Of a stretch of DNA of 35,139 nucleotides, positions 3,003 to 16,784 are shown one piece after another. The DNA is taken from positions 1 through 35,139 of the forward strand of contig JBBIJB010000012.1 in assembly GCA_037446215.1 (NCBI GenBank), read 5' to 3'. The stretch's first letter is position 1. The number at the start of each line of letters is the position of its first letter. The notes beneath the pieces are model-generated. The model saw only the letters and a program-made list of their open reading frames with translations, did no database searches and was not told where the DNA came from. A program made the position numbers and the translations under genes. The stretch is from Armatimonadota bacterium (lineage in GTDB: Bacteria; Sysuimicrobiota; Sysuimicrobiia; Sysuimicrobiales; Humicultoraceae).

Positions 3003-4436
3003 TCAGGCGTCGATGCCCCTGCCCGCCAGCTCTCCAACCAGCCTCTCCGCCGCCTCGGTTCCCTGTCGGATGCAGTCTGGGATCCCAACGCCGCGATAGC
3101 TGGATCCTGCCAACGCCAGGCCGCCGAGGGAAGCGATTTCGGCCTCTATGGCTGAGATCCTCTCGAGGTGCCCGGGACGGTACTGCGGCATCGACCCCCT
3201 CCAGCGGGTTATCCTGGTGAAGATGGGCTCCGCACCGATTCCAATGGTCGATCGCAGGTCCGCGCGCACCAATCCCTCGATGCGAGCATCCTCCTCCTCG
3301 ACGACCTCCTCACGCCCCGAGGCCCCGAGGTAGCAGCGTACCAGGACGACGTCCGGTGGTGCGCGGTGCGGCCACTTCGACGACACCCACGTGCACGCGG
3401 TTATGCTGAGCGGCTCCCCCTTCGCCACTATGAAGCCGTGGCCCGCGAGGGGGTGGTCGACCTCGGCCCTTCTGTACGCCATGGTGACGACCACCGTCGA
3501 GACGCTCGGTATCCGGGACAGCCCTTCGGCGGCCGTCCGAGATAGGGGTGCGACGAGCCCGGCGGTTACGCTCGCCGGTGTGGCGAGCAGCAACGCGTCG
3601 GCGTGGAGGGCCTGCCCGTCCTCCAGGGTAACTACGTACCCTGGTCTGCCGCCGCGCTGCTCCGTCCGGGACACGCCCACGGCCCGGCTGCCCGAGATCA
3701 CGGTGGTCCCGCCGAGGGAGGCGGCCAGCCGGCCCACCATCTCGCCCACCCCGCCTGTCAGGCTGAGGAACATCGGGGCATGTCGCTTGCCCCGGCCGGC
3801 CACCTGTCTGCGGCGAGAGATCGCCGCAAGCACCAGGCTTCGGTGGGTCGCCTCCCACTCCCGCAGCTGCGGGAAGGTCGCGCGAACGCTCAGTTCATCC
3901 ACGTTACCGGCGTGTATCCCGGCCAGCAGCGGGCCCGCGAGCCGTGTCACCGCGGCCTCGCCGAGCCGGCGGCGTATGAACGCTCCGATGCTCTCGTCCG
4001 AGTCGTCTTTACGCCGGGGAAGCACGAGATCCAGCCCCACGCGCAGCTTCTCCATCGGCGAGAGCAGGCCGCTGCGCCACAGCGGAAGGAACCGGCTTGG
4101 AATCCCCAGGGCAAGCCCCTCTGGCAGAGGGTAGAGCCTGCCCCTTGCGGCGACATAGACCGCCCTGCCCGGAACCGTGCCGATCAAGTGGTCGCCCAGC
4201 CCGATCTTCCTGCAGAGCTCCGCGGCCCACGGCTTCGTGGAGAGGAACGAGTCCGGCCCTGCCTCGACCAGGCAGCCACCGACGCGCTCGGTCAGCAGCT
4301 TGCCTCCCAGCCGGCCCTCCTGCTCGATCAGAGTGCACCTCGCGCCCATTTCCTTGGCGAGGGGATCGGTGGCGACGGCGTAAGCGGCGGCCATCCCCGT
4401 AATCCCTCCGCCTACGATCACAATGTGACTGCCCAC
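3003..4436 (-). CDS. hemY: Protoporphyrinogen/coproporphyrinogen III oxidase (HemY/CgoX type)
   Basis: FAD motif IVGGGITGMAAAY, EAGPDSF, GIHAG, SSKWPHRAP, MPQY.PGH, GVGIPDCIRQG. GTG at 4436 follows the hemH stop by 4 nt. Confidence 0.93.
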   Translation of the reverse strand: MGSHIVIVGGGITGMAAAYAVATDPLAKEMGARCTLIEQEGRLGGKLLTERVGGCLVEAGPDSFLSTKPWAAELCRKIGLGDHLIGTVPGRAVYVAARGRLYPLPEGLALGIPSRFLPLWRSGLLSPMEKLRVGLDLVLPRRKDDSDESIGAFIRRRLGEAAVTRLAGPLLAGIHAGNVDELSVRATFPQLREWEATHRSLVLAAISRRRQVAGRGKRHAPMFLSLTGGVGEMVGRLAASLGGTTVISGSRAVGVSRTEQRGGRPGYVVTLEDGQALHADALLLATPASVTAGLVAPLSRTAAEGLSRIPSVSTVVVTMAYRRAEVDHPLAGHGFIVAKGEPLSITACTWVSSKWPHRAPPDVVLVRCYLGASGREEVVEEEDARIEGLVRADLRSTIGIGAEPIFTRITRWRGSMPQYRPGHLERISAIEAEIASLGGLALAGSSYRGVGIPDCIRQGTEAAERLVGELAGRGIDA

Positions 4437-4440
4437 GCCA

Positions 4441-5454
4441 TCACCCTTCCCGCGTCCGACCCGCCTGGCCCTGGCCTCCCAGGCGGCTTGAGTCGGTTGC
4501 AAGCTCCGCGAGGGCCGCGATCAGGCCCTCGTGATCGTTGAGGGAGTCCGTTCTCTCGTAGCGCACTCCCAGCGAGTCGCAGAGCTCCTTGCACTCGATG
4601 TCAAGATCGTAGAGAACCTCGAGGTGATCAGATACGAAGCCCACAGGGCAGATGACCGCCGACGCGGCCCCGCGCGCTCCGAGATCGCGCAGCACCTCCC
4701 GGACGTCCGGCCCGAGCCACGGCTCACCAGTGCGCCCACCGCTCTGGTAGGCAAGGACCCAGCGGCGAACCCCGGCCGCATCGGCGACCGCCCGGCATGT
4801 CGCCGCCACCTCCTCGGGGTAGGGATCCTGCCAGGCCGCTATCCGCTCGGGCAGGCTGTGGGCGGTGAAGACGACAGCCGCCGACCGCTCCCCCTCGCCC
4901 CCCAGGCAGAGGGCCCCTCGCAGTCTCTCTGCCAGGGCTCCGATCAGGAGAGGATGGCTTCCCCACCTCTCCACGCAGGCCATCTCCAGCGACCCCGCAG
5001 GGCGACCGCCTCCTCCGGCCCTGTCTGAGGAGCCGCCCTCGCGGATCTCGTGGGCCGCGGCTTCCACCGCCGCGATGTAGGCCCCGACGCCCATCCGTGA
5101 GTAGTGGGGTGCCAGCACCAGCCCGACGCCTCTCTCGAGGCCGTCCGCTGCCATCGTCCGCACCGCCTCCGCGATCGAGGGGCGGGAGTGCCTGGTGCCG
5201 ATGTAGACCCTGAAGCCGCCGGGATCCGACGCGTCGAGCCGTTCCTGCAGCGCCGTGCCCTGCCTCCGAGTGATCTCCATCAGGGGTGAGATGCCGCCGA
5301 TGGCGGCATATCGCCGAGCGGCCTCTCGCACCGCCTCTTCACCCGGAGGTCGCCCTCCCCTCACGCTCGTCAGGTAGTCGGTGAGGGCAGATGGGCCGGC
5401 AGGGCTTCCGTGGGCCATCAGCAGGACGCCCACCGGAGGCCGGGTGCCTCTCAT
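4441..5454 (-). CDS. hemH: Ferrochelatase (probably coproporphyrin ferrochelatase CpfC)
   Basis: LLMAHGSP, LAPHYS, VFTAHSLP, AYQSGGRTGEPWLGPDV, GFVSDHLEVLYDLD; ATGA overlap with hemE. Confidence 0.94.
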   Translation of the reverse strand: MRGTRPPVGVLLMAHGSPAGPSALTDYLTSVRGGRPPGEEAVREAARRYAAIGGISPLMEITRRQGTALQERLDASDPGGFRVYIGTRHSRPSIAEAVRTMAADGLERGVGLVLAPHYSRMGVGAYIAAVEAAAHEIREGGSSDRAGGGGRPAGSLEMACVERWGSHPLLIGALAERLRGALCLGGEGERSAAVVFTAHSLPERIAAWQDPYPEEVAATCRAVADAAGVRRWVLAYQSGGRTGEPWLGPDVREVLRDLGARGAASAVICPVGFVSDHLEVLYDLDIECKELCDSLGVRYERTDSLNDHEGLIAALAELATDSSRLGGQGQAGRTREG

Positions 5455-6479
5455 CGACCCTCGGGGCGGGGGAAGGTGTGGACTAGGTCAACCAGCCTCC
5501 GCAGGCTGTCCGGGGGCGTCTTCGGCAGCACCCCGTGGCCCAGGTTGAATATGTGGCCGTGTCGGCCTCGCGCTTCCTCCATGATCTCCGATGCCGCCTC
5601 GGCTACCTCGTCGAACCGAGAGAGGAGGAGGATCGGATCCAGGTTCCCCTGTATGGCCATCTCGCCTATCTGCGACCAGGCCCACGACAGCCTTACGCGC
5701 CAGTCGACACCCATCACCGTGCCGCCGGCGGAGGCCATCAGCCCCAACAGCCCTCCGGTGCCGGTGCCGAAGTGTATCGAGGGAACCCCAAGGGCATCGG
5801 TGGCCTCGAACAGCCTGCGCATGTGCGGGAGCACCGCCCTGGCGTAGTCGCGGGGAGAGAGCGCGCCCACCCAGCTGTCAAACACCTGAACGGCCTGCGC
5901 GCCCGCAGCCACCTGGGCCCGCAGGTAGGCGATCGTGGTGTCCGTCAGATGCTCCATCAGCCTGGTCCAGAGCCGTGGCGTCTCGTATAGCATCCGCTTC
6001 GTGAGCACGAGGTCGCGCGATCCCCTGCCCTCGATCATGTAGCTCGCAACCGTGAAGGGAGCCCCTGCGAACCCGATCAGGGGAACCTTGAGCTCGCGCC
6101 GGAGGAGGCGTATCGCCTCGAGCACGTATGGGACCTCCTGCTCCGGCTCGAACCGCCTGAGGGCCGCTATCTGTGTCTGGGTTCGGACAGGCGTCTCGAT
6201 GACCGGACCGGTGCCCTCGACTATCTCGAACGGCACCCCGATGCCGGACAGCGGAAGCGTTATATCCGCGAACAGGATGGCCGCGTCGACTCCCAACTGC
6301 TCCACAGGTAGCATCGTGGTGCGGACGCACAGCTCGGGGTTCCTGCAGATCTCGAGCATCGAGTAGCGCTCACGGAGCGACCTGTACTCAGGCTGGTACC
6401 TGCCGGCCTGGCGCATGAACCACACCGGGGTGCGATCCACGGGCTCCCTCCGGCAAACGCGCAGGAAGCGGTCGTTCAT
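5451..6479 (-). CDS. hemE: Uroporphyrinogen decarboxylase
   Basis: PVWFMRQAGRY, DAAILFADI, IGFAGAPFT.ASY, QGNLDP, IFNLGHGVLP. ATG 6479 overlaps the radical SAM stop (ATGA). Confidence 0.96.
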   Translation of the reverse strand: MNDRFLRVCRREPVDRTPVWFMRQAGRYQPEYRSLRERYSMLEICRNPELCVRTTMLPVEQLGVDAAILFADITLPLSGIGVPFEIVEGTGPVIETPVRTQTQIAALRRFEPEQEVPYVLEAIRLLRRELKVPLIGFAGAPFTVASYMIEGRGSRDLVLTKRMLYETPRLWTRLMEHLTDTTIAYLRAQVAAGAQAVQVFDSWVGALSPRDYARAVLPHMRRLFEATDALGVPSIHFGTGTGGLLGLMASAGGTVMGVDWRVRLSWAWSQIGEMAIQGNLDPILLLSRFDEVAEAASEIMEEARGRHGHIFNLGHGVLPKTPPDSLRRLVDLVHTFPRPEGR

Positions 6480-7585
6480 GCCGGGTCGTAGCCGCACAGC
6501 GGATCCGAGTCAAGGGGGTCGCCCGTGTGGGCGAAGGCCCGTGCCCGCGAACCGCCGCAGATCGCGGCGAACTCGCACCTGCCGCACCTGCCCTTCAGGA
6601 GTGAGGTGTCGCGGAGCGATCTGAACAGGTGGCCCTCCCTGTAGATCTCCGACAGGCTGGAACTCGGCACGTTGCCGACGGCCAGCGGCAGGAACCCGGA
6701 GGGCGTAACCTCGCCGGTGCGAGAGATGAAGAGGATGCCGTTACCGTCGCGGATGCCGAAGCCGCGGGCTATGGCGGCCGCACTGGAGCCCGCCGCGTGA
6801 CCCGCGGAGCCCATCCGCTCCAGCGCCAGCCTTCGGAAGTGCGGAGCCTCCGTCGTCTTGACCGCGAAGGGGGCCCCCGGGATGATGTCCAACAGCCACT
6901 CCATGAAGCGGTCGGCATCCGCGGGGGCTAGCTCACGCAGCGCCGTGCCTCTCCCCACGGAGACCAGGAAGAACAGGCTCCAACGCTCTATCGGGAGCGC
7001 GCACAGCGCTTCGTAGAGCGCGGGCGCCTCCCTCGAGGTCTCGTCTGTCACCAGGGTGTTTACCTGTAGGCCGATGCCCGCTTCGAGGGCCCAGCGGGCA
7101 GCCTTCATCGTCGTCTTGAAGCAGCCCGGGACACCGCGGAAGGCGTCGTGGCTCTCCGCCGTCGCACCGTCAAGGCTGAGCGACATGCTCACTACCCCGG
7201 CCGCCCGCAGGCGCTCAAGGGCGAGGGGTGTGAGCATCGTCGTGCCGCTCGGTGCGAGCGATACCCCGATCCCGAGGGCCGCGGCCTCATCGATCAGGCG
7301 GAAGAGGTCCGGGCGCTTCAGCGGATCTCCCCCGGTCATGACGACGTGGGGAAACGGTTCGCCGAAGCCGGTCACCTGCCTGAGTACCGCAATCCCCTCC
7401 TCGGTGGTCAGCTCGTCCGGATCCCTCTCCACTACCGCCTCGGCCCTGCAGTGTCGGCACGCCAGGTCGCAGGCGCGCGTAAGCTCCCAGTAGACCAGCA
7501 TCGGCGCACGTGAGTAGACGTAGCCGCTCTGGGCACTACGGACGGCCTCGTACGAAGGGAGGGCAGGGCCGGCACGCCTAGGCAT
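6476..7585 (-). CDS. Radical SAM/SPASM-like protein related to AhbD/NirJ (probably TIGR04053-like family)
   Basis: WELTRACDLACRHCRAEA (CX3CX2C), TGGDP, SLDGA...HD.FRG, TTEAPHFRR, C-terminal PSGFLP and CGRCEFAAICGGSRARA...DPLC; SD AGGAG. Confidence 0.85.
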   Translation of the reverse strand: MPRRAGPALPSYEAVRSAQSGYVYSRAPMLVYWELTRACDLACRHCRAEAVVERDPDELTTEEGIAVLRQVTGFGEPFPHVVMTGGDPLKRPDLFRLIDEAAALGIGVSLAPSGTTMLTPLALERLRAAGVVSMSLSLDGATAESHDAFRGVPGCFKTTMKAARWALEAGIGLQVNTLVTDETSREAPALYEALCALPIERWSLFFLVSVGRGTALRELAPADADRFMEWLLDIIPGAPFAVKTTEAPHFRRLALERMGSAGHAAGSSAAAIARGFGIRDGNGILFISRTGEVTPSGFLPLAVGNVPSSSLSEIYREGHLFRSLRDTSLLKGRCGRCEFAAICGGSRARAFAHTGDPLDSDPLCGYDPA

Positions 7586-8873
7586 CGCCCATGCTCCTGA
7601 ACGCCGCCCCGGCAGCCTCCACGGTCTGCTCTATGTCGGCGTCGGAGTGCGCCGCCGAGACGAACCATGCCTCGAACTGAGAGGGCGGCAGCAAGATCCC
7701 TTGTTCGAGCATGCCCCTGAAGAACGCCGCGAACCGCCTGGTGTCAGCCGTCTGGGCCGCCGCGTAGTCCACGGGGGGCTCGCCCGTGAAGAAGACCGTC
7801 AGCAGGGAGGCCTCTCGGACGACCGAGACCTGCCTGCCCGATGCCCGGGCCGCATCCTCCAGCCCCTCGGCCAGGCGGGCCGACCTCGCCTCGAGTGTGG
7901 CGTAGGGCTCCTCGTCTGTAAGGCCTCGGAGCACAGCCACCCCAGCCGCCATCGCCAGGGGATTCCCGGAGAGCGTCCCGGCCTGGTAGACCGGGCCGAG
8001 CGGCGCCACGACCTCCATGATCTCCCGCGTTCCGCCGTACGCTCCCACGGGCAAGCCGCCGCCGATGATCTTGCCAAGCATCGTCAGGTCAGGGGCAACT
8101 TTGAACCGCCCCTGCGCTCCCCCGACGCCCAACCTGAACCCTGTGATGACCTCGTCGAACACCAGCAGCGACCCTTCGGCGGCGGTGATCTCCCTGAGGC
8201 CCTCCAGGAATCCCGGTCGGGGCCGCACCACGCCCATGTTGGCAGCCACCGGCTCGACTACGACCGCGGCGATCTCCCGGGGGTTGGCGGCGAAGACCGC
8301 GCGGACGGCGTCCAGGTCGTTGTAGGGCGCTACGAGGGTATCGGCCACCGCGGCCTCGGGTACGCCCGCGCTGCTGGGCAGCCCGAAGGTTGCCACACCC
8401 GACCCGGCCTGGGCGAGCAGGGGATCGGCGTGGCCGTGATAGCACCCGGCGAACTTCACGACCTTCTCGCGGCCGGTGAAGCCGCGCGCGACCCTCAGCG
8501 CGCTCATGCCTGCCTCGGTCCCCGAGCTCACGAACCTGAGGCGGTCCATCGAGGGCACGGCTCTGCGCACCAGTCGGGCCAGCTCCAACTCGTACGGGGT
8601 GGGCATCCCGAAGCTCGTCCCGCGGGCAGCCGCTTCTGCAATCGAGGAGACGACGCCAACATGTGCGTGGCCCAGCAGCAGCGCTCCCCACGCGCCGATG
8701 TAGTCGAGGTAGTTGGCTCCATCGGCGTCCGTGATCCTGGATCCCGCTCCGCTGCTCACGACGATCGGGCGGCCACCGACCGCACGAAAGGCCCTGACCG
8801 GGCTGTTGACCCCTCCCGGGAAGAAGGTCTCGCTCTCCGCGAAGAGCTCCCTTGAACTAGGACTGCTCGCCAT
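7578..8873 (-). CDS. hemL: Glutamate-1-semialdehyde 2,1-aminomutase
   Basis: PGGVNSPVRAF, SGTEA.MSA.R.ARG, GCYHGH.D, FDEVITGFR, PLP Lys in LGKIIGGGLPVGAYGG, QAGTLSGNP. Confidence 0.97.
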   Translation of the reverse strand: MASSPSSRELFAESETFFPGGVNSPVRAFRAVGGRPIVVSSGAGSRITDADGANYLDYIGAWGALLLGHAHVGVVSSIAEAAARGTSFGMPTPYELELARLVRRAVPSMDRLRFVSSGTEAGMSALRVARGFTGREKVVKFAGCYHGHADPLLAQAGSGVATFGLPSSAGVPEAAVADTLVAPYNDLDAVRAVFAANPREIAAVVVEPVAANMGVVRPRPGFLEGLREITAAEGSLLVFDEVITGFRLGVGGAQGRFKVAPDLTMLGKIIGGGLPVGAYGGTREIMEVVAPLGPVYQAGTLSGNPLAMAAGVAVLRGLTDEEPYATLEARSARLAEGLEDAARASGRQVSVVREASLLTVFFTGEPPVDYAAAQTADTRRFAAFFRGMLEQGILLPPSQFEAWFVSAAHSDADIEQTVEAAGAAFRSMGDA

Positions 8874-10197
8874 CGGTTGCCTCACCCTCCGTTTCGCCCA
8901 GGTCCCCGCAGCCCGGCTCCGGCCTCCGGTGGAGGGGATCCCCCAGGCCGAACAGCTCCCTAGCCGCGTCGAGCGCGCCCAGATCCGAGCGCGCAGCGGC
9001 GTCCCTCATCCGCACTATCGGCGTGTGCAGGAGCTTCCTGACTGCGGCGTGCACCGCCGCGCTCATCGCGTCCCGCTGCGTCTCCCCTACGTCCTGCAGC
9101 CTGCCGCGCATTCTGTCCGTCTCTGCCTGCACGATAGCATCGGCCCTGGCGCATAGCTGCGCGATCAAGGGGGCCGCCGCGCGGGCCGCCAGCCAATCCT
9201 CGAACCTGGACAGGGACTCATCGACGATCCGTTCTGCAAGGCCGAGCTGCTCGGGCGGGAGCCGTACGGGTGTCCCCTTTGCCGCCAGATGGTCCAGCAC
9301 TCTGAGCGTCACACCCTCGAGGGAGGCGACCTCCGGTGCCACTCCTCGCGGAACCCCGAGGTCGATGACGAGCAGGGGGCGCTCCCTACCGGCCGCGGGC
9401 GCCAGCATCCCCGCGGTGACAACCGGCCTCTGAGACGCGGTGCACACTACCACCAGGTCCACCTCGCCGCTCGCGGAGGTGATCGCGTCGAGCGCGGATG
9501 CCCGTGCATGGACGCGTGCGGCGATCGGCCTCGCCCTATCGGGTGTCCGGTTGGCAACGGCGATCACGCGAGCTCCGGCCGCTGTGAATACCTCTGCGAC
9601 CAGAGAGGCGATCTTTCCGGCGCCGACTATCATCATCGGGCGGCCCGCCACCGACCCAAGCGCGTCTCCGGCCAGGGAAAGGGCGGCCCGGGGCACCGAG
9701 GGAGCGCCTTTGGCGAGCCCGGTCTCCTGGCGGACCCGCCGCCCTGTGACTATGGCCGACTGCATCAGCCGGTTGAGCATCGGCCCTGTGGCTCCGGCAG
9801 AGCGCGCGATGTCAAGCGCCCGGCGGACCTGGCCCAGGATCTGTGGCTCTCCCACGATCATCGAGTCGAGGCCGGAGGCGACCCGGAGCGCCTGGCGCGC
9901 TGCAAAGGAGCCGCCGTGGAAGTAGAGCGCCGGCTCCAGGGCAGATCGCTCCACGCCCCGGGCAGCGCAGAGGAACTCCGTCACTCCATCCGCCGCGGAC
10001 GGTTTGGTAGTCGCAACGTAGAGCTCGGTCCTGTTGCACGTTGAGAGGAGAAACGCCTCCTCCACGCCTGGCAGCCCAAGCACTCCTTCCAGGGCGCAGG
10101 GGATCTCGGCGTCGGAAAACGCCACCCTCTCCCGTAGCTCAAGCGGTGCGGTCCTGTGGTTGAGCCCTACTGCGACCAGGGCTGTCCGATCGCTCAA
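8857..10197 (-). CDS. hemA: Glutamyl-tRNA reductase
   Basis: [14 protein letters not shown], catalytic [40 protein letters not shown] 10197 overlaps the hemB stop (alternative GTG 10221). Confidence 0.94.
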
Positions 10198-11195
10198 CTC
10201 TCCGCTTCCTCCCGCAGCCACCGCGCGGCTTCACCTGCCGCGTAGGTGATGACGATATCCGCTCCTGCGCGCCGGACCGCGGTCAGCGCTTCGAGGAGCG
10301 CCCTGCGCTCCTCGAGCCACCCGCGCTCGGCGGCGGCCTTGATCATCGCGTACTCACCGCTGACGAAATAGGCCGCCAGCGGAAGCCGCACCTCCTGCCT
10401 CGCCGCTCGGATGACGTCGAGGTAGGCGAGCGCCGGCTTCACCATGACAATATCCGCGCCCTCTTCGACGTCGAGATGGATCTCGCGCAGCGCCTCACGG
10501 ACGTTTGCGGGATCCATCTGGTATCCCCGGCGGTCCCCGAATCCCGGCGCCGAGTCCGCGGCGTCGCGAAACGGGCCGTAGAAGGCCGAGGCGTACTTGG
10601 CGGCGTAGGCCATGATCGCCGTATCCGTGTGCCCTGCAGAGTCGAGCCCCTGGCGGATCGCCCCCACTTGGCCGTCCATCATGGCGCTGGGCGCCACCAC
10701 ATCGGCTCCGGCGGCGGCGTGCGAGACGGCAGTCCGTGCGAGCAGTTGCAGGGTAGAGTCGTTGTCTACCTGTCCCTCCTCGATGACTCCGCAGTGACCG
10801 TGGTCGGTGTAGGCGCACAGGCAGACATCGGTCATGACGACGAGCGACGGGCAGTGCCGGCGCAGCAGCCGGACCGCTTCCTGCACAACTCCGTCCTCGA
10901 CGAAGGCACCGCTGCCCAGGGCATCCTTGCTTTCGGGAAGCCCGAAGAGCAGTACCGACCGGACCCCCAGCTCCAGCATGCGGCAGGCCTCGTCGACGAG
11001 CGTGTCGGGGGAGAGCCGTGCCTGTCCGGGCAGCGACCCTATCGGCTCCCGGATGCCCCGGCCCCCGCGCACGAAGAACGGAGCGACGAACTGCTCGGGA
11101 TGCAGCCTGGTCTCCGCAGCGAGCGCTCGCAGGGCACCGCTGCGGCGCATTCTCCTGGGGCGGAGTCTCGGGCTAGACTGTGGCGGACTCTGCAT
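10194..11195 (-). CDS. hemB: Porphobilinogen synthase (Zn-binding type)
   Basis: [72 protein letters not shown] before ATG 11195. Confidence 0.97.
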
Positions 11196-12000
11196 CTGGA
11201 CCTCCCTCGTCAGCGGCCCCCGGGCCGCCCCGGGCGGCCAGGAGGGCACGCACTATCCCCTGGGCGGTGTGCTCCTCTGCCACCGTGGAAGGCACCAGGC
11301 CCTCCTCGACCGCCGCAGCCGCAGTTACCGGGCCTATGCACGCGATCGTGACCCCGGCGAGCGCCCCGCGCTCCTCGCCGAGCAGGCGCACGAGACCCCG
11401 CGCGGTGGACGCGCTCGTGAGCACGATCGTGTCCGCCCCTTCCTCGCGCAGTGCCCTGTAGAGGCGCTCTTTCGATCTCGTCGGTCCCACGACGGTGCGG
11501 TAGGCGGTGACCTCGTCGACTTCCGCGCCCCGTCCGCGCAACACGTCGGCAAGCTCGGGCCCCGCGGCGTCGGCCCTTGGGAGGAGCGCCCTCTCACCGC
11601 GCTTGATCGGGATCTCGGCCGCGATCACCCGCGTCAGGAACCTCGACGGAACGAACTCCGCGTATATCCCTGCCTTGCAGAGCGCTTCTCGGGTCGCGTC
11701 GCCTATTGCGGCCCAGCGCACGCCTTTGGCGTCGGCGAGGTCGATGCGCAGCGACCTCGCCCTGCCGGCTATCGCCCTCGCTCCGTTGGCGCTGGTCACG
11801 ATCACCCAGTGGTAGTTACCTATCCTCTGAATCCTCTGATCGAGCGGGCCGCCTCGCCGCGGCCAGGCGATCGCGATAGTGGGCACCGCAATCGTCTTCG
11901 CCCCGAGCCGCCTGAGGGCTCTGCTGATGTAGCCGGCCTGCCCGCGCGGTCGCGTTATGATGATCTTGCGCCCGGCCAGCGGGCCTCGCGCGCCGCTCAC
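11173..12000 (-). CDS. hemD: Uroporphyrinogen-III synthase
   Basis: [46 protein letters not shown] overlap with hemC. Confidence 0.92.
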
Positions 12001-12905
12001 CTCCGTGCCCCTTCCAGTAGGAGGGCGGCCCCCCGTGCCAGCAGGATCTCGGCAAGCCGTGCGCCCAGCCCTCTCGGATCGTCCGCCGGGCCGCTCGCGC
12101 TCTCACGCAACACCCGGGTTCCCACTGGATCAAGGACCGCGCCCTCGATCTCGATCTCCCCTGGCCCGTACGCGGCCAAGGCGGCTATTGGGCGCTGGCA
12201 ACCGCCGCCCAGGGCCTCCAGCATGCTCCGCTCAGCCACTACCGCTGTCCGGGTGGGATGGTGGTCCACCGTGGAGAACCGATCGATCAGTGCATTATCG
12301 CCTTCCCTACACTGGATCACCACCGCTCCCTGCCCCACCGCGGGCAGCATCAGCGAGCGGTCTATCCGCCGGTGACTGCGGCTAAGAAGGCCGAGCCGGG
12401 CAAGACCGGCCGCCGCCAGGATCAACGCGTCGACCTCGCCCCGATCAAGCTTGCGCAGGCGCGTGTCCACGTTTCCCCGCATGCCCGTCACCACCAGGTC
12501 GGGGCGCGCGGCCAGCACGAAGGCCTTCCGCCGCGGGCTGTCGGTTCCGACGGTCGCGCCCGCGGGCAGCGCCTCGAGCCCGCATCCGTCCCTTGTGACC
12601 AGCACGTCGAACGGATCCTCCCTGGGCAGGAACGCAGCCATCCTCACGCCGGGAGTCGTCTCGCCGGGCAGGTCCTTTGCGCTGTGCACGGCCAGGTCGA
12701 TCCGGCGTTCGATCAGGGCGCCCTCCAGCTCCTTGACGAATGCTCCTATGCCGAGCTCCGAGGAAGGACGGTCCGGATGTCGGTCGCCGTGTGTCCGGAC
12801 CGGTATGATCTCGCAGAGCACTCCTGCGCCTCCGGCTGCCCTGGCCGCTGCGTCGGCCTGCGCGAGCGCCAGGGCGCTGCCTCGTGTCCCGAGGTATGCC
12901 CTCAT
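11997..12905 (-). CDS. hemC: Hydroxymethylbilane synthase (porphobilinogen deaminase)
   Basis: GTRGSALALAQ, FVKELE.AL...IDLAVHSAKDLP, RGNVDTRL.KL, PAVGQGA, cofactor Cys in LGGGCQRPI. Confidence 0.96.
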   Translation of the reverse strand: MRAYLGTRGSALALAQADAAARAAGGAGVLCEIIPVRTHGDRHPDRPSSELGIGAFVKELEGALIERRIDLAVHSAKDLPGETTPGVRMAAFLPREDPFDVLVTRDGCGLEALPAGATVGTDSPRRKAFVLAARPDLVVTGMRGNVDTRLRKLDRGEVDALILAAAGLARLGLLSRSHRRIDRSLMLPAVGQGAVVIQCREGDNALIDRFSTVDHHPTRTAVVAERSMLEALGGGCQRPIAALAAYGPGEIEIEGAVLDPVGTRVLRESASGPADDPRGLGARLAEILLARGAALLLEGARR

Positions 12906-13561
12906 CCAGGGGTGCCCTCAAGCGCCCCCCGGGCCGTACCGACGGGGTCCTCCCAGGCGCGCATGACCTCCAGGAAGACCTCGTCGAGCAGGTCACTGAC
13001 CTCCACGAGGGCTCCGACCTGGTTCTCGTCGAGCATCCCTCCCCTGCCCCTGGGTCTCGTGACCAGATCCAGGAGCAGGTGGCGGAAGAAGGCGAACGCC
13101 TCGGCCGCCTGCGTCATCACGACTCCTTCCCGCTTCAGCTCTATCCCGTAGGCGAGTGCCCGGGCCCTGAGTTCCGCCCGGATCGCGTCTCTCGATTGGG
13201 GAAAGGCGACGAAGCGCGCCACCGAGGAGACGAGGTCCCTGCCGTGATCCCTGGCCTTCGCCCGGAGCTCCTCATTCAAGGCCGAGAACCAGGTGCGGTC
13301 ATGCAGGGGGCGCGCAGGGGCCCGCGAGAGGAGCTTCTTCACCCTCCTCTCGACGAGATCGGCCAGATCTTCTACCCGCGGGACCTCGCGCTGCATCAGC
13401 GCCCGCAGGTCCCTCTCGAGGAAGCGCCGGTGGCCGCCGGGCGTGCGAAAGGTCCTGATCTGGCCCGCGTCGGCCCAATGCCGCAGCGTGGCCTCGTCAA
13501 CCCCCAGCTCGGAGGCGGCCTCTCCCAGGGGCAGCCAGCGATCTCTTCGTGGTTCACCCAT
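12902..13561 (-). CDS. Putative transcription regulator: BldC/excisionase (MerR-like) winged-HTH plus helical C-terminal domain
   Basis: N-terminus LGEAASELGVDEATLRHWADAGQIRTFRTPGGHRRF, then ~150 aa of amphipathic helices. Its stop overlaps the hemC start (ATGA). Confidence 0.85.
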   Translation of the reverse strand: MGEPRRDRWLPLGEAASELGVDEATLRHWADAGQIRTFRTPGGHRRFLERDLRALMQREVPRVEDLADLVERRVKKLLSRAPARPLHDRTWFSALNEELRAKARDHGRDLVSSVARFVAFPQSRDAIRAELRARALAYGIELKREGVVMTQAAEAFAFFRHLLLDLVTRPRGRGGMLDENQVGALVEVSDLLDEVFLEVMRAWEDPVGTARGALEGTPG

Positions 13562-13575
13562 CGGACTTTCAGCCT

Positions 13576-13605
13576 ATTCTATGCAATTCTGCGCAATCCT
13601 GCATT
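13576..13605 (-). repeat. Three phased 10-bp imperfect direct repeats over the putative heme-operon promoter
   Basis: Plus strand ATTCTATGCA / ATTCTGCGCA / ATCCTGCATT. On the minus strand they include a -10-like TAGAAT at 13581-13576. Confidence 0.7.
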
Positions 13606-13809
13606 TCCCTCGTGGCGCTCCAAACGGGCCCAGGGTGGTCCAGCATCCGCTCTGGGGGCTCGACCGTATCTTCTAAGGGGGCCTCCGGTGCGCGTTCTAT
13701 GCATAGTGCATTCGTCCACGTAGGATATCGCCTCTATGACTGCGAATAGTGCGGGACAACGAGTGGTTGAGCTGGCTTCACCTCAAGCGAGCATCCGGGG
13801 GGGATGTAG

Positions 13810-14799
13810 ATGAAGTCGCAGCGCGTGCTCGTTTTCCTGCTCCTGATCTGCTTTGCGCTCGCCGGTGTCCATGCGCAGGCGCAGCCCAGACCAGGCTGGC
13901 CGAGAAGCGTCACGATAGGCTCCGCTTCGATAGGCGGCGTCTACCACGTGGTCGCAGGGGGCTACGCTCGCGTCATAAGCGAGAAGATGGGCCTCGCAGC
14001 GACGAACCGCGTAACCGGGGGGCCCGTCCAGAACGTCCAGCTCGTTCAGACCAAGGAGATAGAGTTGGGCATGACCACCGCCGGTCCGGCCTTCGAGGCC
14101 TACCACGGACTGGGTGACTTCAAGGGCAAGCCGCTCGACTCGATCCGCATAGCGTTCCCGATGTACACCTCCTACGCCCACTGGATCGTCAACGCCGACT
14201 CGCCGGTCAGGTCGGTGGCCGATCTGTCGGGGAGGTCCGCCAGCCTCGGCCCGCGCGGCGGATCCGCGGAGTTCGTAGGCCTCCGGGTCTTCGACCTGTT
14301 CGGCGTGAGGGCTCGCTCGGTCTTCCTCAGCTTCGCGGACGGGGCGACCGCCCTGCGCGACAGGACGGTGGACGCCAACTTCGGTGTGATAGGGCTTCCG
14401 GTGCCGGCCTGGGTGGAGGCGTCGCTGACTCGCCCGATGCGCTTCTTCGGGTTCACCAAGGACCAGATCGACACACTCGCCGAGAAGTTCCCCTATCTCG
14501 CCAGGGCCGCGATCCGAGCCGGCGTCTATCGAGGGCAGGACACGGTCATCCCGACGGTGCAGATGTGGAACGCTGGCGTCGTGCACAAGGACATGCCTGC
14601 GGACTTCGTCTACGAGCTGGTGAAGACGATGTTCGGGAACCGAGAGTTCCTGGAGGCCGTCCACCCGACATCCGCGGAGATGCTCCCGGTGAACATCTTC
14701 TACATCAAGCTCCCGCTGCACCCCGGCGCAGTCAGGTTCTTCAGGGAGCAGAACGTTAGGCTGGCCGATGAGCACATCCCGCCCGAGATGAAGCGGTAG
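13810..14799 (+). CDS. TRAP transporter solute receptor, TAXI family
   Basis: Signal peptide ending AQA, IGSASIGGVYH, TGGPVQNV, SLGPRGG, YELVKTMF, C-terminal PLHPGAVRFFRE. Confidence 0.92.
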   Translation: MKSQRVLVFLLLICFALAGVHAQAQPRPGWPRSVTIGSASIGGVYHVVAGGYARVISEKMGLAATNRVTGGPVQNVQLVQTKEIELGMTTAGPAFEAYHGLGDFKGKPLDSIRIAFPMYTSYAHWIVNADSPVRSVADLSGRSASLGPRGGSAEFVGLRVFDLFGVRARSVFLSFADGATALRDRTVDANFGVIGLPVPAWVEASLTRPMRFFGFTKDQIDTLAEKFPYLARAAIRAGVYRGQDTVIPTVQMWNAGVVHKDMPADFVYELVKTMFGNREFLEAVHPTSAEMLPVNIFYIKLPLHPGAVRFFREQNVRLADEHIPPEMKR

Positions 14800-14822
14800 C
14801 AGCGGCAGGGGAGGTTAGGCGG

Positions 14823-16784
14823 TTGAGCATCCCGGGTTCAGGCCTCCTGGTCGACATAGAGCACGTCGGCGACACCTCCGAGATCCGGACCAGGGCTCTC
14901 GGGGGTGCTCTCCGCCTGCTCGTGCAGTTGACCGCGGTGGCGATGGCCGTATATCACATACTGCAGCTCGGGGGCTTCTTCGGGATCGTTACCGATCCAC
15001 AGAAGCTCTACGCTGTTCACCTGACGTTCATCCTGGTTCTGGCGTTTCTCCTGATCCCGGCTCGCAGGAAGGCGATCGCCTCTCCGACTGCGTTCGATTG
15101 GCTGCTGATCGCGGCCAGCCTGGTCGTCGTGGTCTACCTGTTCGCCGACTTCGTGCCGCTGACTCGGCGGGCCGGGGTGTTTCCGACGCAGTGGGACGTC
15201 GTCGTCGGTACGCTCCTCGCGGCGGCGACGGTCGAGGCGTCGCGACGCTCCACAGGGCTCGCACTGCCCATTCTCAGTTCGCTCTTCATCGCCTACGTCT
15301 TCATCGGCCCCTGGATGCCCGGGCTGCTGGAGCACAAGGGCTTCAGCTTCAACTCGCTGATCTCTTTCCTGTTCAGCGACAACGGGATCTACTCGGTGCC
15401 GATCCAGGTGTCCGCGCGCTACGTCTACCTGTTCATCCTCTTCGGCGCGTTCATCGAAGCCTCCAGCATCGGCAAGTTCATAGTCCACCTGGCCCTGAGC
15501 ATTGCAGGAGGCAGGCGCGGGGGCCCGGCCAAGGTCTCGATAATAACGAGCAGCCTCTTTGGAACCGCGAGCGGCTCCTCGGTGGCCAACGTCATGGTCG
15601 ACGGGGTGATCAACATCCCGCTGATGAAGGCTACCGGATTTCGCGGATCGGTCGCGGGCGGCGTAGAGGCGATGAACAGCACCGGCGGTCAGATCGTCCC
15701 GCCTGTCATGGGCGCAGCCGCTTTTCTAATGGCCGACATCATCGGCGTGCCCTACTCGAAGATCGCTATCGCAGCGATAGGACCGGCGCTGCTCTACTAC
15801 GTGGCCGCCTACTGGATGATCGACCTCTACGCGGCCTCGGCACGCCTCCACGGTCTTCCCAGGGCGCAGCTCCCCCGATTTGGGGACGTCATCTTCCGCC
15901 ACGGCTATCTCCTGCTGCCGATGGTCCTGCTGCTCTACATGATCATGGGCGCCGGGGCCTCGCCGTTCCGCTCTGCGCTGTACGCCCTCGCTGCGACCGT
16001 CCTGCTGTCGTGGCTGCGGGCGGACACCCGCCTCAACCTCCGCAAGATCGTCCGCGCGATGGAAGACGGCGCGAAGCGCACGGTCGAGATAGGAGCCACG
16101 TGTGCTGCGGCGGGAATCATCGTGGGAGTGCTCTCCCTCACCGGCCTTGGCGGGAAGTTCTCCGAGCTGCTGATCAACCTCGCCGGCGGCAACCTGCTCC
16201 TTGCGCTGATCGCGACGATGGTCGTCGCGATCATCCTGGGCATGGGGATGCCCACGACCGCGGCCTACGCGATCGGGGCGAGCGTGCTGGCCCCCGCGCT
16301 GGTCAAGCTGGGCGTGGCCCCGCTGGCCGCGCACATGTTCCTCTTCTACTTCGCGGTGATCTCGGCGGTGACCCCGCCCGTGGCGCTGGCGTCGTTCGCG
16401 GCGGCCAGCCTGGCGAAGGCGCCGATGTGGGATACGGCGATCCAGGCTGTGAAGCTCGGAATAGCCGGCTTCATAGTCCCATACATGTTCGTCTACGGAC
16501 CCGCGCTGCTGGTCGGGACCACTCAGTGGCAGGCGACATTGCTGGCGCTCGCGACCGGTACCATCGGGACGCTGTGTCTGGCTGCGGCCGCCATCGGCTA
16601 CCTCATGAAGCCGGCCACTCTCTTGGAGAGGGCACTCCTCATGGTGGCCGCGCTGACGCTGATCAAGCCCGGCGTAGCGACGGACGTTGTTGGGCTGGGC
16701 CTCCTGGCCCTGGCCCTCGTGATGCAGCGGTTGCGGGCCGCGCCGTCCACGGCCGCGCCCGCCCCCTCGGGCATGGGGCCCTAG
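14823..16784 (+). CDS. TRAP transporter fused 4TM/12TM permease
   Basis: Many TM helices, GGRRGGPAKVS, GTASGSSVANV, STGGQIVPPVMGAAAF.MA, LGMGMPTTAAY, TPPVALAS; SD GGAGG before TTG. Confidence 0.93.
   Translation: MSIPGSGLLVDIEHVGDTSEIRTRALGGALRLLVQLTAVAMAVYHILQLGGFFGIVTDPQKLYAVHLTFILVLAFLLIPARRKAIASPTAFDWLLIAASLVVVVYLFADFVPLTRRAGVFPTQWDVVVGTLLAAATVEASRRSTGLALPILSSLFIAYVFIGPWMPGLLEHKGFSFNSLISFLFSDNGIYSVPIQVSARYVYLFILFGAFIEASSIGKFIVHLALSIAGGRRGGPAKVSIITSSLFGTASGSSVANVMVDGVINIPLMKATGFRGSVAGGVEAMNSTGGQIVPPVMGAAAFLMADIIGVPYSKIAIAAIGPALLYYVAAYWMIDLYAASARLHGLPRAQLPRFGDVIFRHGYLLLPMVLLLYMIMGAGASPFRSALYALAATVLLSWLRADTRLNLRKIVRAMEDGAKRTVEIGATCAAAGIIVGVLSLTGLGGKFSELLINLAGGNLLLALIATMVVAIILGMGMPTTAAYAIGASVLAPALVKLGVAPLAAHMFLFYFAVISAVTPPVALASFAAASLAKAPMWDTAIQAVKLGIAGFIVPYMFVYGPALLVGTTQWQATLLALATGTIGTLCLAAAAIGYLMKPATLLERALLMVAALTLIKPGVATDVVGLGLLALALVMQRLRAAPSTAAPAPSGMGP

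Follow-up and report, generated by a model that had tools for sequence, protein, structure and literature searches.

A BldC-type helix-turn-helix joined to a histidine-less globin-fold domain in a candidate regulator of heme operons from Armatimonadota and Chloroflexota

Here, we describe a 35,139-nucleotide (nt) stretch of Armatimonadota DNA (contig JBBIJB010000012.1 of GenBank assembly GCA_037446215.1), the whole of which we call the window, and within it a ten-gene operon for heme biosynthesis (hem) headed by the gene for a putative regulator, in which a BldC-type helix-turn-helix (HTH) is followed by a predicted globin-fold domain of a histidine-less kind. The TGA stop codon of the regulator gene (12902-12904) overlaps the ATG of hemC (12903-12905) as ATGA, and nine close-packed or overlapping genes, identified with Pfam, follow on the same strand in the order hemC, hemD, hemB, hemA, hemL, a radical S-adenosylmethionine (SAM) gene, hemE, hemH and hemY, most of them overlapping by a few bases (Table 1). 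A first-pass annotation, made by a model from the letters of the sequence, had placed the gene at the head of a ten-gene heme operon with its stop overlapping the hemC start, and the open reading frame (ORF), the ATGA junction and the Pfam assignments of the neighbors all agree with this.

The radical-SAM protein encoded at 6476-7585 scores 445 bits against the NCBIfam model TIGR04053 (cut-off 395), its next-best match being heme b synthase AhbD at 290 bits, below the cut-off of 500, and orthologues with 53-70% identity are found in the hem clusters of six related loci (L001, L002, L004, L050, L060 and L062). Because this TIGR04053/AhbD-like gene is present and no ChdC/HemQ-type gene is found among the ten operon genes, the window operon resembles a coproporphyrin-type route whose final step would need no oxygen, the TIGR04053 protein probably being its oxygen-independent coproheme decarboxylase.

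Table 1. Features of the regulator gene, its upstream region and the hem operon in the window
Feature	Position	Strand	Basis or remark
Regulator gene	12902..13561	-	219-residue ORF, ATG start, heads the hem operon
BldC-type MerR-like winged HTH, residues 9-58	13388..13537	-	Pfam, NCBIfam, PDB, Foldseek, VIA-align
Histidine-less globin-fold sensor domain (predicted), RsbRD_N-like, residues 63-208	12938..13375	-	Models, hhalign, conservation
Candidate operator, three head-to-tail 10-bp units AGGATTgcgc AGAATTgcat AGAATA	13575..13600	-	Repeat scans
Possible -10 hexamer TAGAAT (inferred only)	13576..13581	-	Own scan, 7/12; overlaps the third unit, ends 14 nt before the ATG
Second exact TGCATAGAA copy (TTCTATGCA on the + strand), single unit	13695..13703	-	118 nt upstream of the first, same intergenic region
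hemC (porphobilinogen deaminase)	11997..12905	-	Pfam
hemD (uroporphyrinogen-III synthase)	11173..12000	-	Pfam
hemB (5-aminolevulinate dehydratase)	10194..11249	-	Pfam
hemA (glutamyl-tRNA reductase)	8857..10221	-	Pfam
hemL (class-III aminotransferase)	7578..8885	-	Pfam
Radical SAM/SPASM protein, TIGR04053, AhbD-like	6476..7585	-	Pfam, NCBIfam
hemE (uroporphyrinogen decarboxylase)	5451..6497	-	Pfam
hemH (ferrochelatase)	4441..5454	-	Pfam, NCBIfam
hemY-type porphyrinogen oxidase	3003..4502	-	Pfam, NCBIfam

The N-terminal domain of the regulator is the more readily recognized of the two. Residues 9-58 score above the Pfam cut-offs for HTH_17, MerR and MerR_1 (for the MerR-type HTH models PF00376 and PF13411, 36.6 bits against a cut-off of 28.2 and 30.9 against 21.6) and match the NCBIfam model HTH_BldC (NF033787) with an E-value of 1.1e-13, yet at 50.8 bits remain below its curated threshold of 77. 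A PDB search with the family profile retrieves the BldC chains 6amk (E 2.4e-11) and 6ama (E 3.4e-11), followed by the MerR-HTH cobalamin-binding protein 8jbs (E 7.2e-9) and CarH (E 0.004). The full-length AlphaFold model, with a predicted local distance difference test (pLDDT) score of 83.8, aligns to BldC in Foldseek with template-modeling (TM) scores of 0.83-0.90, normalized to BldC, at 41-44% identity, and in VIA-align with a Z-score of 8.9 and a root-mean-square deviation (rmsd) of 1.2 over 52 residues. These results uphold the earlier proposal of a BldC-like HTH. The wing reads RTPGGHRRF, and T25, R27, W29 and R39-F47 are invariant across 68 aligned relatives. The classical MerR coiled coil, a long dimerization helix that follows the wing and leads to a short effector site, is absent, because the MerR_1 match covers positions 3-46 of the 69 in the profile; in the model, a linker and then the globin fold follow. 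The cobalamin domain that the first-pass annotation had failed to see is equally missing from our scans of the window protein, in which no B12-binding domain (PF02310/PF02607) is matched by Pfam at E <= 1 and the NCBIfam model TransRegCarH reaches 14.4 bits against a cut-off of 400.

The C-terminal region is recognized through structure prediction and profile comparison. Residues 60-219 have no significant match in Pfam or NCBIfam, and a PDB sequence search with the profile of this C-domain gives a best E-value of 0.28, to designed proteins. In VIA-align, residues 63-208 of the full-length model match the non-heme sensor pXO2-61 (3pmc_B) with Z 12.6 and rmsd 2.8 over 132 aligned residues, and DosC, ApcE, an N-terminal fragment of Rv2242, stressosome RsbR-type domains and other globin-coupled sensors follow at Z 9-10.5. 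A model of the domain by itself, built on 79 sequences (pLDDT 86.4, predicted TM-score 0.79), again has 3pmc_B as its best match (Z 13.6, rmsd 2.5, 131 of 132 residues), ahead of DosC (4zva; Z 11.2, rmsd 2.9, 130 residues), the Rv2242 fragment (Z 10.6), the MtR stressosome chain 3zta (Z 10.2), the Geobacter sensor (Z 9.9), AfGcHK (Z 9.8), chains of ApcE, allophycocyanin and photocobilin (Z 8.0-10.3) and RsbR (2bnl; Z 7.8). Chains of the globin superfamily fill the first 16 rows of the VIA-align list and, by our own reading, 41 of the 50 rows listed. All rows that Foldseek lists for the domain-only model are likewise globin folds (DosC, a Bordetella globin-coupled sensor and phycobiliprotein chains), with TM-scores of 0.65/0.68 to DosC and E-values of 0.06-0.2 across the list.

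A sequence-level counterpart of this similarity comes from hhalign. We compared the C-domain profile with RsbRD_N (PF14361) domains gathered from related genomes, which are the N-terminal domains of GGDEF and histidine-kinase proteins. Against 18 such domains, the alignment has a probability of 95.3% and an E-value of 2.1e-8 over 114 columns, and the inclusion of a 19th sequence, which is itself a member of the regulator family, brings these values to 96.9% and 1.6e-10; as controls, the reversed template reaches E 0.017 and ten shuffles of the columns reach E 0.19-0.84. The two groups have in common W91, R104-x-x-G107-R108, F156-x-x-F159-R160 and D193, and Y138-G139 is specific to the regulator family, being found in none of the RsbRD_N domains compared. 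On this profile evidence, the C-domain is a distant homologue of RsbRD_N sensor domains. The distance is evident in Pfam, where the window protein matches neither PF14361 nor PF08678 at E <= 1, seven relatives run through hmmscan yield no PF14361 match at E <= 10 and a best Rsbr_N value of E 0.019 in one of them, and the 68 aligned members yield no PF14361 match at E <= 0.01 and a single Rsbr_N match (E 0.0025); one relative, L090, does exceed the PF14361 cut-off, at 25.1 bits against 24.3. Precomputed PF14361 labels carried by about 20 homologues were set aside, as hmmscan at E <= 10 on the seven did not reproduce them, and it is for this reason that we base the RsbRD_N link on hhalign. The first-pass annotation had likened the domain to globin-fold sensors such as the N-terminal domain of RsbR, a comparison with which both the structural lists and the hhalign result agree, and the C-terminal motifs it listed are all present (AYG at 137-139, AFAFFR at 155-160 and the last helix, LLDEVFLEVMRAW), coinciding with the best-conserved columns Y138, G139, A155, F156, F159, R160 and D193. 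The genome that contains the window also encodes an RsbRD_N-GGDEF protein (contig C103:498-776, our L096; a 330-residue frame), that is, the same type of sensor with a diguanylate-cyclase output.

The C-domain is predicted to form a homodimer: two copies attain an interface score (ipSAE) of 0.55 against 0.01 for the best control, a mark reached by 20 of 30 proteins solved as same-chain pairs and 1 of 23 that were solved as single chains. The dimer runs have at least 86% of their contacts in common, with a partner pLDDT of at least 69. The predicted interface is formed by C-domain residues 87-144, which are residues 148-205 of the full-length protein and make up its two final helices; R160 and D193 belong to the residue pairs that come nearest to each other across the subunits, and their near-invariance would thus gain a structural reason. 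Globin-coupled sensors dimerize through a G/H-helix interface, the same kind of interface as is predicted here, and the outcome of the dimer test may reflect the resemblance of the model to solved sensor-globin dimers.

The regulator belongs to a sizeable family. Homologues at E <= 1e-3 number 166, and a profile of the C-domain alone retrieves 924 representative clusters (50% identity) at E <= 1e-3 and 658 at E <= 1e-10, so extensive a set of relatives that the regulator frame is, by its conservation, a real gene. A search of a protein atlas returned the family's own clusters and no others, with scores of 0.81-0.86 that lie below the trusted level. A locus scan restricted to one genome per species found at least 583 stretches encoding relatives among 600 pattern matches, of which the best 80 were kept; they come from Armatimonadota, many classes of Chloroflexota and a few metagenome-assembled genomes labeled Bacillota or Proteobacteria. 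Hem linkage was scored by tblastn with the window's own hem proteins, and 66 of the 80 loci have at least 3 kb of downstream sequence. Same-strand hem genes (hemA/C/D/B/L/E/H/Y) lie downstream in 44 of these 66, within 3 kb in 43, within 1 kb in 23 and within 200 nt in 7, and 4 of the 14 loci with a shorter flank still show hem genes, all of which fits the association of homologues with hem genes that had been anticipated. The arrangement varies: hem genes lie directly upstream of the regulator in L060, an AhbD-like radical-SAM gene lies directly downstream in L062, and hemB is divergently upstream in L008 and L010.

The genes lying between regulator and hem genes were examined in 10 Chloroflexota loci and include a SirC-like precorrin-2 dehydrogenase gene in all 10, a gene for a fused AhbA-AhbB siroheme decarboxylase in 7 and an AhbC-like radical-SAM gene in 1; these gap genes therefore extend the hem linkage across two heme routes and several gene orders. 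The fused AhbA-AhbB genes (334-363 residues), each followed by the SirC-like gene, lie in L034 (10674-11717), L052, L073, L080, L030, L044 and L024, in each case between the regulator and hemA, and the AhbC-like gene is that of L011. The Chloroflexota whose AhbA-AhbB/SirC hem clusters are headed by the regulator appear, from this gene content, to make heme via the siroheme route. A midpoint-rooted FastTree tree of 79 proteins has hem-linked members in each of its major clades, and the unlinked members form a few subclades. One unlinked subgroup (L015, L021, L036 and L023) lies between ribBA/ribH and genes for a haloacid dehalogenase-type (HAD) hydrolase and dnaN, another follows priA (L032, L035, L048, L077 and L079), and a third follows a PucC-type transporter gene (L058, L066 and L074).

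The region upstream of the regulator gene contains a candidate operator. Three head-to-tail units of 10 bp lie 14-39 nt upstream of the start codon, read on the coding strand, within the stretch 13562-13620 that the first-pass annotation had singled out for a DNA-binding assay. The closest relatives, L001-L005, have the same upstream arrangement, and many Chloroflexota loci have tandem yAGATTT units. We scanned 80 upstream regions (79 loci and the window; L041 is too short and was left out) for the AGRWTT-type unit AG[AG][ATC]TT. Pairs spaced by exactly 10 bp occur in 27 of the 80 regions, compared with 0-1 regions for each spacing of 6-9 and 11-15 bp and a mean of 0.03 in shuffles. The strict 10-bp pair is found in 24 of 49 hem-linked regions versus 3 of 31 others, and of these three, two have shortened downstream sequence and the third is L062, with its AhbD-like neighbor. 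A relaxed scan, with one mismatch permitted in the second unit, raises the counts at 10 bp to 28 of 49 and 4 of 31, the other spacings giving 0-6 and 0-2, respectively. Within the window, the two-unit pattern occurs once (0 expected), and the 24-base three-unit pattern, at up to one mismatch, has a single match in the whole 2.16-Mb, 91%-complete genome, at 13577-13600. In two of three genomes examined whose regulator is not hem-linked, the two-unit scan finds 4-6 units directly before the hem genes, which are sirC-hemC in L106 and hemA-hemC in L108; the third, L107, has no site in the stretch scanned upstream of hemC, its operon start lying further upstream.

How the repeats sit relative to the promoter bears on the sign of regulation. 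Relative to the best sigma-70-like promoter that a simple scan gives for each of the 27 regions, the repeats are downstream in 18 cases, overlapping in 8, among them the window, and upstream in one. BldC itself assembles head to tail into cooperative multimers on direct repeats of the form AATTxxxx(C), as reported in excerpts of PMC5859096. Since both the motif and the HTH resemble those of BldC, a BldC-like head-to-tail mode would be the most economical reading of the repeats, and it is the direct-repeat reading, rather than the palindromic one, that is conserved across phyla. Classical MerR regulators use a palindromic operator within a 19-20-bp promoter spacer; the window site is an imperfect palindrome too, and the best spacer in the promoter scan of the window is 17 bp long, with a weak -35 element.

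These features lead us to propose that the protein is a one-component transcription factor devoted to the synthesis of heme. The analysis itself shows the domain architecture, the fold, the RsbRD_N homology, the hem synteny across phyla and both heme routes, and the conserved periodic repeats; that the protein binds DNA, in which direction it regulates, that it dimerizes in the cell and what its ligand is are the parts that we infer. That the protein is a dedicated regulator of hem clusters acting through the repeats is, in our judgment, very likely. The BldC-type HTH would most likely bind the three direct repeats (AGRWTT-N4) head to tail upstream of its own gene, and the bound protein would repress both the regulator gene and the nine hem genes, repression being proposed because the repeats cover the operon promoter or follow closely behind it; we consider a role as hem-operon repressor probable. 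The globin-fold sensor, of the histidine-less RsbRD_N/pXO2-61 type, would form a symmetric dimer in which the last two helices of each copy meet and the conserved residues R160 and D193 pair between subunits, and a flexible linker would join sensor to HTH. We liken this arrangement to OmpR-type response regulators, in which symmetric sensor dimers sit over tandem DNA-binding domains. Binding of a small molecule in the globin pocket would then alter oligomerization or HTH spacing and, with it, the occupancy of the DNA. The most probable ligand would be a product or intermediate of the pathway, such as heme, coproheme or a carboxylate-rich porphyrin(ogen), which would place the operon under feedback control. 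As a whole, the scheme of an HTH on the repeats, a globin-fold sensor, repression and plausible tetrapyrrole feedback seems to us the best explanation, and on balance a probable one. The combination of domains, operator and role is new, and both domains come from known superfamilies.

The identity of the ligand is the part of this scheme that conservation constrains least. We compared 51 hem-linked with 20 unlinked relatives. In the hem-linked set, neither His nor Cys attains 40% at any column of the C-domain, in line with the absence of a proximal His noted in the first-pass annotation. That annotation had also suggested a His ligand in the RDHG motif, a suggestion that does not survive: His is kept at H106 in 4 of the 51 hem-linked relatives, and we reject H106 as a ligand; at H87, it is kept in 6 of 51. 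The Tyr of the AYG motif, the other residue then suggested, fares better, as Y138 is conserved in 86% of the hem-linked relatives and in 100% of the unlinked ones and stays a candidate ligand residue. If the proximal His of DosC is taken to be His98, the offsets of the aligned ranges in the model matches place Y138 roughly one helical turn or less from the proximal-His position, a crude range-offset mapping that does not extend to the level of residues. According to excerpts of PMC8717448, the equivalent position is usually Tyr in phycocyanins, which bind bilins, and an Arg in RsbR-type globins, which bind a fatty acid; both a tetrapyrrole and a lipid ligand are thus compatible with the fold, and the sequence, as we read it, does not choose between them. 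We regard a tetrapyrrole as the leading candidate, though with confidence on the low side of even, and another small molecule as rather unlikely, the remaining probability falling to no ligand or a bilin. The specific version in which the histidine-less globin sensor binds heme, coproheme or a carboxylate-rich porphyrin(ogen) via Tyr138 and the conserved arginines, thereby switching a head-to-tail HTH assembly in both phyla and both routes, we put forward tentatively.

A number of observations weigh against the proposed scheme, beginning with the fold. The Foldseek E-values of the C-domain are not significant, at no point reaching 0.001, and Z-scores below about 13 can arise among helical proteins through arrangement alone; our assignment rests on the TM-scores and VIA-align Z-scores and, since helical proteins reach Z near 13, on the consistency of the lists and the full coverage of the small target. 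As to the ligand, canonical heme ligation is excluded, judging from the lack of a conserved His or Cys in the C-domain and the absence of any Cys from the window protein. A fatty acid, and no tetrapyrrole, is the ligand that excerpts of PMC8717448 report for the nearest structural match, pXO2-61, and for the RsbR class. The residues W91, R104, G107, R108, F159, R160 and D193 are common to the RsbRD_N domains of GGDEF and kinase proteins, so that the most conserved residues are uninformative about heme specifically, and R160 and D193, as predicted interface partners, are made unlikely as pocket residues. At the level of the loci, no heme gene lies nearby in 20 of 66, where the regulator is found beside rib genes, dnaN, priA, pucC or others, and the relatives are not independent samples. 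At the operator, the strict repeat pair is missing from 25 of 49 hem-linked upstream regions, and the three-unit pattern (up to one mismatch) is not found in five genomes with an unlinked regulator. The window site is also an imperfect palindrome, 73% complementary, and the promoter calls are weak, the window scoring 7/12 in our own scan and a separate promoter and terminator scan of 13400-13900 coming back empty.

The best-surviving alternative retains a hem-operon regulator and assigns it a signal other than a tetrapyrrole, such as a lipid ligand (fatty acid or acyl-CoA) or a cue from redox state, oxygen or stress, so that heme synthesis would be tied to the state of the membrane or of respiration rather than to end-product feedback. 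The top structural matches are indeed non-heme proteins (pXO2-61 at Z 13.6, Rv2242 at Z 10.6 and stressosome RsbR-type domains at Z 7.8-10.2), the profile homology leads to RsbRD_N, and a conserved Arg mediates the binding of a fatty acid by RsbR-type globins (PMC8717448, in excerpt), which compares with several invariant Arg and no His in the regulator family; moreover, the unlinked paralogues keep the same conserved C-domain residues as their hem-linked relatives. What makes this alternative unlikely in our view is the position of the gene, which heads heme operons of two routes across phyla, the classic place of a sensor of end product or intermediate, together with the Y138-G139 pair, family-specific and absent from the RsbRD_N domains compared, and the high rank of phycobiliprotein-type globins, which bind tetrapyrroles without His.

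An improbable alternative is that the C-domain has no ligand and acts as a dimerization or oligomerization module, the protein being a constitutive, concentration-dependent autoregulator, in effect a BldC with a built-in clamp. The predicted last-two-helix dimer with its R160-D193 pair would fit such a clamp, BldC works without an effector domain (PMC5859096, in excerpt), and the most conserved residues are common to the wider RsbRD_N superfamily. The conserved W91, R100, R104, R108, Y138 and G139, however, lie outside the predicted interface and need another explanation, and the RsbRD_N-type domains of related genomes appear to act as sensors, because they are the N-terminal inputs of GGDEF and histidine-kinase proteins.

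A regulator of the photoglobin/phycobiliprotein type, responsive to bilins or light, we consider highly improbable; it would sense biliverdin or another linear tetrapyrrole, or light by means of one, and adjust tetrapyrrole synthesis accordingly. Phycobiliprotein beta subunits do prevail in the Foldseek results (TM 0.5-0.6), the Z-scores of 8.0-10.3 given above are those of ApcE, allophycocyanin and photocobilin, the HTH resembles that of 8jbs (E 7.2e-9), and photoglobins fused to MerR-HTH and HTH_17 domains are described in excerpts of PMC8717448; on the other side, the window protein has no B12-binding domain and no Cys for bilin attachment, its sequence-profile link goes to RsbRD_N, the non-heme sensor and the heme-sensor globins outscore the photocobilins, and the sequencing runs that contain the window DNA are labeled subsurface metagenome. 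To the idea that hem adjacency is incidental and that the protein, of excisionase-like kind or a general DNA-binding one, has nothing to do with heme, which draws on the database label of relatives ("excisionase family DNA binding protein") and on the 20 of 66 sufficiently flanked loci with no heme gene nearby, we give almost no credence, since 44 of 66 loci are hem-linked in varied gene orders and two heme routes, the repeats precede hem genes also where the regulator sits elsewhere in the genome, and no integrase or other mobile-element gene is among the neighbors scanned.

A comparison with known systems helps to place the proposed regulator of hem operons. With Streptomyces BldC (6amk, 6ama; NF033787), it shares the MerR-like winged HTH with its GGHRR(Y/F) wing and, in its candidate operator, head-to-tail direct repeats with an A/T core; BldC, however, is a stand-alone HTH of 68 residues that has no effector domain, uses 9-bp repeats and serves development, whereas the regulator has 219 residues, a folded C-terminal sensor of 146 residues, a repeat period of 10 bp and heme genes as its presumed targets. 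With RsbRD_N and RsbR-type domains (PF14361, PF08678; 3pmc, 2bnl, 3zta), it shares the histidine-less globin fold, the W, RxxGR, FxxFR and D motifs and, by prediction, dimerization via the two final helices, although those domains stand alone or serve as N-terminal inputs of STAS, GGDEF and kinase proteins and the domain of the regulator is C-terminal to its HTH. CarH/LitR and related MerR-HTH photoreceptors (5c8d, 3whp, 8jbs) likewise fuse a MerR-like HTH to a tetrapyrrole-type sensor module without the classical coiled coil, but theirs is a B12-binding domain and that of the regulator a globin fold. The globin-coupled sensors (DosC 4zva, HemAT 1or4, AfGcHK 5ohe, BpeGReg 4uiq/6m9a) have the same fold (Z 8.0-11.2, TM 0.61-0.68) and differ in their proximal His, in a heme cofactor used for gas sensing and in their cyclase, kinase or methyl-accepting chemotaxis protein (MCP) output, compared with the histidine-less domain and HTH output here. 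To photoglobin and phycobiliprotein globins, the likeness is one of fold only.

Irr, HbrL, PerR/Fur, SpxA1 and HssRS/ChrSA/HrrSA also control heme metabolism at the level of transcription, but have neither a BldC-type HTH nor a globin-fold sensor. From the same phylum as the window, FG214 is a heme-binding one-component HTH-PAS switch (bioRxiv 10.64898/2026.03.15.711900), which, by the description in the abstract, uses a PAS domain and belongs to a different family. Two reviews of bacterial heme regulation (PMC10991733, PMC11442138), searched by term, name no MerR-, excisionase- or globin-type hem regulator. Full-text literature searches, with subscription-only papers outside their scope, found no published description of the regulator family, nor did they turn up any characterized hem regulator of HTH-globin architecture, as the first-pass annotation had also maintained, or anything on hem-gene regulation in Chloroflexota or Armatimonadota. 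Nearest to it in print are the work on BldC (PMC5859096), that on photoglobin (PMC8717448), whose MerR-HTH and HTH_17 fusions involve another non-heme globin, and the FG214 preprint, with its different sensor fold.

To our knowledge, transcriptional control of heme synthesis is known for only a few model bacteria, through unrelated regulators. Control of the pathway by an HTH joined to a histidine-less globin-like domain is probably of a kind not yet described, and it would operate in two large, mostly uncultured phyla, where a family of at least 658 clusters (50% identity, E <= 1e-10) supplies a testable set of regulators, operators and operons for both coproporphyrin- and siroheme-dependent routes. 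It would also extend the DNA-binding mode proposed from BldC to a ligand-controlled regulator. If the domain does sense a tetrapyrrole, a DNA-binding output would be added to the repertoire of sensor globins, the family would show how a histidine-less globin recognizes a porphyrin, and a protein of 219 residues with a short repeat operator would become a candidate biosensor part for strains producing heme or porphyrins.

The surroundings of the operon and of its relatives offer a few further observations. Divergently upstream of the regulator gene, at 13810-16784 on the + strand, lie genes for a solute receptor of the tripartite ATP-independent periplasmic (TRAP) transporter type (NMT1_3 family) and for a fused 653-residue DctM-type permease, which share a 248-nt intergenic region with the regulator gene. 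Two ORFs on the - strand downstream of hemY (1668-2576, 302 residues, and 1042-1833, 263 residues) have no Pfam match at E <= 1e-5, and the former has no NCBIfam match either; they overlap one another, so at most one of them may be real. In one Chloroflexia locus (L038:11052-11240), the regulator gene is followed, after some 450 nt, by a second, short match to the HTH region (48% identity), which may be an extra gene for a BldC-like stand-alone HTH.

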